A DNA stretch of 64,000 bases, taken from sequence record NC_054911.1; one strand, 5' to 3'. Positions within the stretch are counted from its first letter, which is position 1; each line of letters begins with the position of its first letter. A program made the position numbers and the translations under genes. Positions 50,483-53,131 of this stretch are shown one piece after another. Origin of the DNA: Escherichia phage ECO4. The notes beneath the pieces were generated by a model. The model was given only the letters and a program-made list of their open reading frames with translations. It was not told where the DNA came from and ran no database searches.

Positions 50483-51305
<823 letters not shown>

Positions 51306-51321
<16 letters not shown>

Positions 51322-51665
51322 TGAAAGGGGCCAGAAGCAAATCCGCTATCTTTAATCATTTTAACTAAAGTTACCATTCCTCTGTTAACTGCTTGCGAGA
51401 TTTCATCAAAAACTTCATCACTATCACCATAAAGATCGCTAAAAAGTTCTAACACGTTCTTCTGAACTTTTAATTTACAGCCAACAAATTCGCCTACAGT
51501 AAATTCGTTTCCGCCAACTCCAGCGTAAAACGTAATTACACCAGTTAATGGTCTTTCACTAGAACATAGGTCGTGTGATAAATTAATATAAGCCGTCCCG
51601 GGTGCAGTTTTAAGTTGGCAACGAATACTTACTCGAGCAATTCCAGCTACACGAATGTCAGACAT
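51306..51665 (-). CDS. hypothetical protein (frd.2 position)
   Basis: 119-aa ORF. Confidence 0.5.
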
Positions 51666-51675
51666 ATTATTTTCC

Positions 51676-51918
51676 TCAAATAGACTTTTTCACAATTTTC
51701 CAATCAGCTTTAAACTGCTCGACGTCAGAATGGTAAATCCAAAATCCTGCGCTTTCTCCATCCTCATAAAGAGGGCATCCATCACATTCATCTTCCCATC
51801 CCATATCGCGTAAAAGGTGTTCAGCTTTTTCAACAAGTTCAGAATCTTTACCGATGATATTAAAATACCATTTACCTCTAACTTCTGAATCTTTGATACT
51901 CTGACGTTGTAATCTCAT
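51676..51918 (-). CDS. hypothetical protein (frd.3 position)
   Basis: 80-aa ORF with AAGGAGA RBS. Confidence 0.5.
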   Translation of the reverse strand: MRLQRQSIKDSEVRGKWYFNIIGKDSELVEKAEHLLRDMGWEDECDGCPLYEDGESAGFWIYHSDVEQFKADWKIVKKSI

Positions 51919-51928
51919 TTTATTCTCC

Positions 51929-51997
51929 TTAGCAAGCTTTAATCAAAAGATATAAACAGACCAACATAACTGCTGCCATAATATAAGGTGCGAACAT
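51929..51997 (-). CDS. candidate 22-aa hydrophobic micropeptide (not in ORF track)
   Basis: ATG at 51997 preceded by GGAGAAAAG; translation MFAPYIMAAVMLVCLYLLIKAC; just downstream of promoter 52028..52057. Confidence 0.3.
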   Translation of the reverse strand: MFAPYIMAAVMLVCLYLLIKAC

Positions 51998-52027
51998 TTT
52001 CTTTTCTCCATTAGTTTTGATAGGGTA

Positions 52028-52057
52028 ATAGTATCACACTACTACCCCGTTGTAAAC
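52028..52057 (-). promoter_or_regulatory. early-type promoter
   Basis: Minus strand GTTTACA - 17 nt - TACTAT with TGn. Confidence 0.5.
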
Positions 52058-52059
52058 AA

Positions 52060-52320
52060 TTATTTTTGAATTTTATCGAGCCACTTACCAAGCTTAATCA
52101 TTTCTTTAGTAGCCTTTTCCATACTTCTGAACTTAACCAATAGAGGATAGGTATCGACACCCATAACTAAACTGGTTACAAGACTGTGTTCACCCACAAG
52201 CCATAACGAATACGTTTGAATATCGAGTCCGTAATTTCTGTCTTTATGGACCCGTACACCCATCACTTCAAATTTCTCACTAGCTTTTTCTACCGCATCC
52301 AGGAAATCATCTTTAGTCAT
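52060..52320 (-). CDS. hypothetical protein
   Basis: 86 aa from ATG 52320; ORF track start 52362 lies inside the upstream gene. Confidence 0.45.
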   Translation of the reverse strand: MTKDDFLDAVEKASEKFEVMGVRVHKDRNYGLDIQTYSLWLVGEHSLVTSLVMGVDTYPLLVKFRSMEKATKEMIKLGKWLDKIQK

Positions 52321-52321
52321 A

Positions 52322-52708
52322 TTAGGCCTTAAAAGTTTTTCGCAAAAGTTCAATGATTTCATCTACATTGTTTTCGTCAACAATGCAGTGAATTTTTGTT
52401 ACGCCAGAAACTATACCTTCATTAGCGGATTGAGGCTTTTCTAAAGTTACCTCAGTAAAGTATTTGAATTCTTCAGGGTAAATCTCAAAATACGTCTCAA
52501 GTGGGCCACCCGCCATGTATTCAGTGCCGTCTTCCATAGTTACACGTACCACACAGTCACCAGCACAATCATCACTTTCCATTTCATCTACAACAAAACT
52601 AGGTCCGTGCTTCTCTATTAAATTTAGCATCATTACATTGCAACGGCACTCGTTAGCAAAGTCATTTTTAAATAAAGGGTTAATGATATAAGTTTTTCCA
52701 ACTTCCAC
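52322..52708 (-). CDS. hypothetical protein
   Basis: 128-aa ORF. Confidence 0.5.
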   Translation of the reverse strand: MEVGKTYIINPLFKNDFANECRCNVMMLNLIEKHGPSFVVDEMESDDCAGDCVVRVTMEDGTEYMAGGPLETYFEIYPEEFKYFTEVTLEKPQSANEGIVSGVTKIHCIVDENNVDEIIELLRKTFKA

Positions 52709-52754: not shown

Positions 52755-52985
52755 TTATTGTTCAATCAGTCCCATGTAAAATTCTGCGTCTTCAGAATCC
52801 ATGCCATCGCAATATTCATTAGCCATAAAGCGGGTAAGGTCTTCAAGAGGACCTTCAATGACAATAGAAAAATTGCAATAATTGGGATCATCATGAATAC
52901 TTGTGATACTAAGTTCAGGATAACGATTACGAATAATCTCTTCAATATATTCAAAATCAACGATGTCAATATCAACTTTAGCCAT
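52755..52985 (-). CDS. hypothetical acidic protein (alternative start 53006)
   Basis: 76 aa from ATG 52985 with AAGAGGAAAA RBS; the ORF track's longer start overlaps a terminator and promoter. Confidence 0.5.
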
Positions 52986-53026: not shown

Positions 53027-53058
53027 GTATAGTACCATAAAGCCTTATGTTTGTAAAC
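53027..53058 (-). promoter_or_regulatory. early-type promoter downstream of gene 32 terminator
   Basis: Minus strand GTTTACA - 17 nt - TACTAT with TGn. Confidence 0.5.
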
Positions 53059-53077: not shown

Positions 53078-53109
53078 TGAAATAAAAAAAGGGGACCTCT
53101 AGGGTCCCC
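53078..53109 (-). terminator. rho-independent terminator after gene 32
   Basis: GGGGACC-TCTAG-GGTCCCC hairpin followed on minus strand by TTTTTTTATTTC. Confidence 0.8.
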
Positions 53110-53131
53110 AATTAATTAGTAATATAATCTA

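Follow-up and report, generated by a model that had tools for sequence, protein, structure and literature searches.

Is the short gap between an early promoter and frd.1 in Escherichia phage ECO4 a spacer, or does it hold a gene of 22 codons? An earlier note on this DNA had proposed that an ATG at position 51997 opens a gene for a hydrophobic micropeptide. Positions given here refer to the window, by which we mean the whole stretch of 64,000 nucleotides that was analysed (sequence record NC_054911.1).

A 22-codon ORF lies between an early promoter and frd.1

The micro-ORF locus lies on the minus strand, and the coordinates of its features were read directly from the window sequence:

52028..52057, minus strand: early sigma-70-type promoter of the PeSL kind (sequence and consensus scan)
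52057 and 52056..52051, minus strand: a G, then the -35 element TTTACA (sequence)
52033..52028, minus strand: -10 element TACTAT, at a 17-nt spacer from the -35 element, the spacer ending in TGTGA
52022..52048, minus strand: PeSL stem-loop with a 12-bp stem, embedded in the promoter (RNA fold)
51998..52021, minus strand: short 5' leader, its start point near 52021 inferred from the position of the -10 element
52009..52006, minus strand: SD GGAG, 8 nt before the ATG (sequence)
51997..51995, minus strand: start codon ATG of the micro-ORF (sequence)
51929..51997, minus strand: micro-ORF, 22 codons plus TAA, product MFAPYIMAAVMLVCLYLLIKAC (sequence and translation)
51931..51929, minus strand: TAA stop of the micro-ORF (sequence)
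51676..51930, minus strand: cistron of the downstream gene frd.1 (DUF5417, 80 aa, ATG at 51918)
51936..52016, minus strand: 81-bp presence/absence segment comprising the SD and nearly the whole ORF (alignment with JLBYU24)
52060..52362, minus strand: 100-aa ORF upstream, with its stop at 52060, annotated as 86 aa (AR1_247 / CAM-21_102)

Each element described in the earlier note was recovered, with all coordinates right. The promoter reads TTTACA-17-TACTAT both in the sequence and in the consensus scan, which flagged the site as promoter-like with a TG extension upstream of the -10 element; the ATG has GGAG 8 nt ahead of it as the proposed ribosome binding site; and 22 sense codons yield MFAPYIMAAVMLVCLYLLIKAC. 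The stop codon, placed by the note just before the ribosome binding site of the next gene, overlaps the frd.1 SD AAGGAG (51930..51925), and the distance from this stop to the frd.1 ATG is 10 nt. The boundaries of the 81-bp segment are ambiguous by a few nucleotides because SD-ATG-like motifs lie on both flanks.

On the minus strand the gene order is gene 32, frd.3, frd.2, an AR1_247-like ORF, the promoter with the micro-ORF, frd.1, two small ORFs and frd. The 801 bp around the micro-ORF are 99.4-99.9% identical to the Tequatroviruses CAM-21, AR1, Sa45lw and RB27, all Escherichia phages; the window belongs to the AR1/CAM-21/RB27 type of Tequatrovirus.

The neighbourhood shows further differences from T4. 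T4 lacks any gene at the position of the 100-aa ORF, which separates frd.2 from the promoter; the annotators of AR1 found the best match of this ORF (AR1_247) in Dhakavirus JS98, a hint that genera have exchanged cassettes. A 71-bp gap is all that separates frd.1 from frd in T4, whereas the window has two ORFs on the minus strand in this interval, 51306..51665 (119 aa, AR1_245) and 51064..51321 (85 aa, AR1_244); for AR1_245 no database match was reported by its annotators. The start of the dihydrofolate reductase gene frd (50483..51091, minus strand) is annotated inconsistently, AR1 using an upstream ATG (609 nt and 202 aa, with an overlap into the ORF before it) and CAM-21, JLBYU24 and T4 a 582-nt form. 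frd.2, at 52322..52708 on the minus strand, stands two genes upstream of the micro-ORF in the window and directly upstream of it in T4; the CRISPRi-ART screen is reported to have found a fitness effect for it and for no other T4 gene of unknown function (PMC11879866). Relatives of Frd.1 (DUF5417) with about 42% identity occur in the Klebsiella phages KP36, Solomon and mtp10, whose genomes of about 50 kb contrast with the roughly 160-175 kb of the T4-type group, so that frd.1 travels well outside that group.

Further upstream, just after gene 32, lies a hairpin with the look of a strong intrinsic terminator (GGGGACC-CTAGA-GGTCCCC, then TTTTTTT; 53091..53109, minus strand). It is followed by a second TTTACA-17-TACTAT promoter (53057..53029, minus strand), which feeds frd.3. 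The true start of frd.3 is an ATG near 52984 (MAKVDIDIV) and not the TTG at 53111 given by the ORF finder.

The product is predicted to be a single hydrophobic helix and is absent from the annotations listed

Length alone is uninformative for an ORF of this size, since the window holds 640 ATG-initiated ORFs of 15-40 codons. The hydrophobicity of the product sets it apart. Its GRAVY is 2.05, a value reached by 1.4% of those 640 ORFs. Of the small ORFs, 16 combine an SD-like motif with a position outside any longer ORF of the same strand, and it is by far the most hydrophobic of these, the next having a GRAVY of 0.93. From F2 to I19 the peptide contains no charged or strongly polar residue; K20 is its sole charge, within a C-terminal K-A-C. 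A hydrophobic segment needs about 18-20 residues to span a bilayer, and F2-I19 would form one segment of bilayer length, predicted to be a single helix. A reading of the peptide as a lipoprotein or signal peptide was rejected: there is no basic n-region, and the residues before C14 are M-L-V, with V at -1, where the lipobox ([LVI][ASTVI][GAS]C) requires G, A or S.

None of the records listed by blastn or tblastn, including those of T4 (AF158101 and NC_000866), has a CDS at the micro-ORF, and none is present there in phage 107, in which ribosome binding sites were annotated by its authors. The Lutter record places a predicted 'promoter' feature on the ORF, and the other listed rows carry none. 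In the T4 gene table of a genome-wide screen of 2025, frd.1 is followed directly by frd.2 (PMC11879866 supplement). An exact-match look-up among about 15 billion predicted proteins did not find the peptide, and a literature search covering the peptide string, frd.1/frd.2, and ribosome profiling or small ORFs of T4 returned no mention of the micro-ORF. Searches of Pfam, PHROGs, NCBIfam and PDB sequences with three variants of the peptide gave no match beyond a meaningless PHROG hit (E = 0.5), and the toxin family models of Pfam and NCBIfam gave none at E <= 10. As far as the databases and literature searched show, the micro-ORF is unannotated and undiscussed in T4 and its relatives.

The micro-ORF is carried by a mobile promoter cassette

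PeSLs (promoter-early stem-loops) have been described as mobile cassettes of promoter and terminator around which T4-type phages shuffle their small accessory genes, and the consensus of their promoters in the T4/PST group is TTTACW-N17-TAYWAT (Comeau et al. 2014, PMC4122927); a term search of that paper found no mention of the frd region or of the micro-ORF. The promoter of the micro-ORF, TTTACA-17-TACTAT, fits this consensus as given there. Its hairpin (52048..52022) has a predicted stability of -15.2 kcal/mol (z = -3.5), equalled by 0 of 200 shuffles, and five other promoter variants from relatives form stems of 10-11 bp with differing sequences (z = -3.8 to -6.4), so that a stem of 10-12 bp persists across T-even genera. 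A consensus fold of the aligned PeSL variants did not find a covarying stem; the stems stand in different registers, and an alignment-based fold therefore misses them. The stem-loop is located upstream of the putative transcription start and would therefore exist only in read-through RNA or in DNA.

All three sequence-based features of a PeSL are thus present: a consensus promoter, a stem-loop, and a site at the boundary of an indel or replacement. The upstream neighbour of the cassette is frd.2 in T4 and an AR1_247-like gene in the window, the 81 bp downstream are either present or absent, and the same presence/absence polymorphism recurs at the motB-cef locus of Dhakavirus. The locus behaves as a PeSL cassette, since both its upstream neighbour and the 81 bp downstream vary among close relatives.

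The stretch from the -10 element to the ATG, TATCAAAAC.AATG.GAG.AAA..AAAATG, is a recurrent module across phages. A leader of the type TATCAA..(A)AATGAGGAAAATAAAATG also precedes annotated genes, namely cef in WG01 and the frd.3-like gp160 in S16, and in one IMG/VR genome the module ends in the start codons of other ORFs. Because the module ends in the start codons of annotated genes in other phages, the ATG at 51997 is, by this comparison, the regular start codon of the cassette. Several copies of the promoter-leader-SD-ATG module were seen within 1-2 kb of a single genome (at positions 170 and 856 in one retrieved sequence, 387 and 708 in another), each before a different small gene; such multiple copies provide ample homology for shuffling of the module. 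Two similar SD-ATG motifs, GGAGAAAAGAAAATG and GGAGAATAAAATG, flank the module at the micro-ORF, and we infer that recombination between them would explain a clean loss or gain of 81 bp.

RNA comprising the leader and the ORF was less structured than 200 of 200 shuffles (z = +2.27). Such openness is in keeping with an mRNA that is initiated efficiently and speaks against an RNA element. In early mRNAs the T4 RegB nuclease cleaves at GGAG, and both GGAG ribosome binding sites as RegB targets would fit an early shut-off. Inside the micro-ORF, the plus strand holds an antisense promoter-like match, TAAACA-18-CATAAT with a TG (51953..51982), which is probably meaningless, as 17 such sites were found in the region against 13.4 expected.

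The ORF occurs in three genera and is gained or lost as a module

As one check on its candidate, the earlier note had named conservation of the ORF and of its hydrophobicity in relatives. Blastn with the 69-nt ORF returned 199 records, all with full coverage, and tblastn with the peptide returned 199 records with an identical breakdown by organism, all aligned over residues 1-22. No disrupted copy was detected among the 199 records by either search, about 20 of the copies having been read base by base and the others judged from BLAST summaries. The ORF is thus conserved, with none of its copies disrupted, across three genera: Tequatrovirus, Mosigvirus and Dhakavirus. Hydrophobicity is likewise kept, GRAVY ranging from 2.05 to 2.21 over all variants. 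In 129 of the 199 copies the DNA is identical; T4 itself has the promoter, the leader and the micro-ORF between frd.2 and frd.1 (AF158101, 146015..146083) with an identical coding sequence.

The distribution is patchy. frd.1 was found at an identity of at least 90% in 512 records, against about 195 with the micro-ORF, so that about 40% of Tequatrovirus-type loci carry it and about 60% do not. The short form differs by one clean 81-bp indel, the promoter being followed directly by the ribosome binding site of frd.1 (JLBYU24, TB37, ELT1 and two IMG/VR genomes). In Mosigvirus a single record, ESh15 (marked UNVERIFIED), has the micro-ORF, at the same locus and behind a local promoter hairpin of the Mosigvirus type; in typical members of this genus (WFK, LF82-8) the gap upstream of frd.1 is about 62 nt, too short for the module. 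Three Dhakavirus records (MN04, UP19 and Esco_phi_B-01) carry the ORF at another locus, between a motB-like gene and cef, and Dhakavirus WG01 shows the short form of that locus, in which the promoter feeds cef directly. Most Mosigvirus and Dhakavirus genomes are without it. Scans of IMG/VR and JGI metagenomes with back-translated patterns recovered only T4-like contigs with the identical peptide, and a back-translated pattern scan of 185,579 bacterial and archaeal genomes gave no match.

Judged from this distribution, the micro-ORF is dispensable in nature, because it is missing from about 60% of Tequatrovirus-type loci and from most Mosigvirus and Dhakavirus genomes. It is accessory cargo of a PeSL promoter cassette, gained and lost as a clean module.

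Substitutions in the ORF are biased towards synonymous sites

Among ten haplotypes, 19 sites vary, with 6, 2 and 11 of them at codon positions 1, 2 and 3; the whole coding signal rests on these approximately 19 sites, and the numbers drawn from them are indicative and not a formal proof. Relative to T4, pN/pS (Nei-Gojobori) ranged overall from 0.07 to 0.28, with values of 0.07 for OES_C-1, 0.07 for ESh29, 0.14 for ESh15, 0.24 for UP19 and 0.28 for MN04. When each lineage's own mutations were re-placed at random sites of the same base, the probability of as few amino-acid changes was 0.037 for OES_C-1, 0.041 for ESh15 and 0.0028 for MN04, values that are not independent, as the tested lineages are related and share some of their substitutions by descent.

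Individual comparisons follow the same pattern. KFS-EC3 differs from T4 by four changes in 69 nt, all four of them synonymous and at third positions; hardly any change is seen in its 60-nt promoter and leader. Seventy records differ from the window in DNA versus 39 in the peptide, and no more than two amino acids are altered in any of the 17 records that carry 4-6 nucleotide changes. The most diverged copies are those of Dhakavirus, with 13 of 69 nt (MN04) and 12 of 69 nt (UP19) different. They keep the 22 codons, the overlap of stop and SD, and a restriction to hydrophobic replacements, despite a different downstream gene (cef).

All replacements seen are hydrophobic or small (A/V/T/I, M/I, L/V, V/I and F/L). 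Across the ten peptide variants 15 of 22 positions are invariant (M1, A3, P4, Y5, I6, M7, V10, C14 to K20 and C22), which includes both cysteines, C14 and C22. Seven sites vary within codons 14-22 (CLYLLIKAC), six of them synonymously, with a double change from TTA to CTG among them; the one replacement is A21T in RB32. Between genera the leader has indels of 2-8 nt; the ORF always has 22 codons and always ends in TAA-GGAG. An ORF in an alternative frame, 51943..52011 (MEKRK...), was rejected: it is without an SD, and the leader indels put the corresponding frame of ESh15 and MN04 in another register, with an unrelated sequence.

The ORF stands upstream of frd.1 in Tequatrovirus and in Mosigvirus ESh15, and upstream of cef in MN04, UP19 and Esco_phi_B-01. 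The pattern of substitutions is indicative of a micro-ORF that evolves like a real protein-coding gene, its peptide being under purifying selection in three genera and two genomic contexts. The candidate gene put forward behind the early promoter thereby gains support from synonymous-biased substitutions, from the lack of indels and from the shared promoter-leader-SD-ATG module.

Discussion

We lean, without great confidence, towards the reading that the micro-ORF is a genuine early gene for a putative trans-acting accessory membrane peptide of 22 residues. The product is probably a tiny, dispensable membrane peptide. According to this model, host RNA polymerase would transcribe the ORF in the first minutes of infection, starting at about 52021, into a message of which the ORF is the first cistron and which runs on into frd.1. 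A peptide of 22 residues would be too short for co-translational targeting and would insert into the host inner membrane post-translationally, as a single helix from F2 to I19 with K20-A21-C22 most likely in the cytoplasm because of the positive-inside rule. It would then act in trans by helix-helix packing with a larger host or phage membrane protein, using as its contact surface two invariant blocks, APYIM at the N terminus and CLYLLIK-C at the C terminus, together with the two invariant cysteines, while positions 8-13 would serve as a generic hydrophobic spacer. The role would be accessory and dependent on niche or host (of the host takeover, exclusion or anti-defence type) and not core. 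As a side effect, ribosomes terminating 10 nt before the frd.1 ATG could re-initiate there. The roles in host targeting or superinfection exclusion that the earlier note mentioned are speculation.

In the CRISPRi-ART screen of T4, the dCas13d guide 146004-146034, directed at frd.1, scored 'Not Fit', as did frd.1 overall (PMC11879866 supplement). This guide covers the last six codons of the micro-ORF and would not block its initiation; the result is compatible with a non-essential gene.

Could the ORF be translated for the sake of its mRNA only? It would then load ribosomes onto the early message in cis, protecting it or feeding the frd.1 or cef start 10 nt further on, with the peptide as a by-product. 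The overlap of the stop with the SD of the next gene, whichever gene that is, and the constant position of the ORF as the first behind the promoter speak for such a role, which we nevertheless regard as unlikely: the downstream genes possess a strong AAGGAG themselves, and in most relatives this promoter drives them with no ORF in between, there are no alternative RNA structures for translation to toggle, and the synonymous bias, the invariant C-terminal half and the hydrophobic-only replacements are left unexplained. Improbable in a similar degree is a non-functional chance ORF that hitch-hikes as a spacer in the mobile promoter cassette and looks conserved only through close kinship. The abundance of small ORFs in the window of an AT-rich genome, the large share of copies with identical DNA, the dispensability of the ORF in nature and a length too short for strong statistics all agree with it. 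Against it, the changes in diverged copies are concentrated at synonymous sites, the Dhakavirus copies keep length, frame, stop and hydrophobicity despite leader indels, none of the 199 copies is disrupted, and the hydrophobicity is an outlier.

A third possibility retains the peptide and gives it no specific partner: it would damage the membrane in the manner of a type I toxin or holin and perturb the proton-motive force early in infection. The single hydrophobic helix, together with a size and composition resembling the Ibs/ShoB/TisB class, fits this picture, yet no toxin family model matched, no convincing antisense RNA gene was found (only a promoter-like match at 9 of 12 positions on the plus strand, and no Rfam match), the leader is open and not translationally locked, and the two short blocks and two cysteines, being strictly conserved, point to a specific contact, so we consider it quite unlikely. 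For the segment acting as an RNA element, either a small RNA or a structured leader, and not coding, points in favour were sought and none found; the RNA is less stable than all of its shuffles, there is no Rfam match at E <= 1 and the substitutions show codon periodicity, which makes this reading very improbable. A regulatory leader peptide or attenuator was likewise rejected, as the stop lies 10 nt from the next ATG, no terminator was found and the RNA is less structured than shuffles.

A bolder form of the favoured reading, that of a trans-acting membrane peptide, is more tentative, and we would sooner doubt it than adopt it: the peptide would be the smallest functional gene of T4, mobile cargo moving between PeSL slots across T-even genera and acting in the inner membrane on a specific target (e.g. 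a membrane-anchored defence or exclusion system, or a transporter), its patchiness reflecting host-specific selection.

T4 is the reference genome for T-even phages. If the micro-ORF is a gene, a conserved early gene is missing from the T4 records and the derived annotations listed, and would be an addition to the reference; genes of fewer than 30 codons would then hide in short 'intergenic' gaps behind T-even early promoters. Natural, isogenic-like pairs with and without the 81-bp module make the function of a minimal membrane peptide directly testable. If it is inert, the locus would still illustrate cleanly the birth and removal of tiny ORFs through PeSL cassettes and repeated SD-ATG motifs.

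Comparison with known systems

T4 Stp is an early peptide of 26 residues that acts on a host defence complex, and it provides a precedent for functional accessory T4 early peptides of fewer than 30 residues that act on host factors. It differs in being hydrophilic and soluble, unrelated in sequence, annotated and genetically defined, whereas the micro-ORF is neither annotated nor genetically defined. The type I toxin peptides Ibs (18-19 aa), ShoB (26 aa) and TisB (29 aa) share with the predicted product its length and extreme hydrophobicity. In contrast to them, the micro-ORF has no detected antisense RNA or family match, has an open leader and lies in an operon of a lytic phage.

Bacteria also encode single-pass membrane proteins of fewer than 50 aa, such as AcrZ, MgtS, KdpF and CydX. 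They resemble the micro-ORF product in being encoded by a short ORF that has an SD of its own, specifies one hydrophobic helix and was missed by annotation; the proposed binding to a larger membrane protein is a further likeness. For the micro-ORF we found the spacing of ribosome binding site and start codon, the hydrophobic segment of bilayer length and, in a small sample of related lineages, the purifying selection that mark small membrane proteins. There is no sequence relationship to the bacterial proteins, however, and the micro-ORF is phage-encoded and served by an early promoter, its 22 residues being at the extreme low end of size.

The cassette itself has its closest counterparts in the PeSLs, reportedly described by Arbiol et al. 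in 2010 as mobile cassettes of T4-type phages. The locus resembles them in its consensus promoter, in its stem-loop and in being a site where relatives gain, lose or replace small genes. Its junctions, by contrast, lie in the repeated SD-ATG motifs downstream of the PeSL and not in the PeSL itself, and the PeSL is the vehicle, whereas the micro-ORF is the cargo. This cargo belongs to no described family but is of a known kind, the very small hydrophobic peptides of bacteria and phages; its PeSL vehicle is already known.
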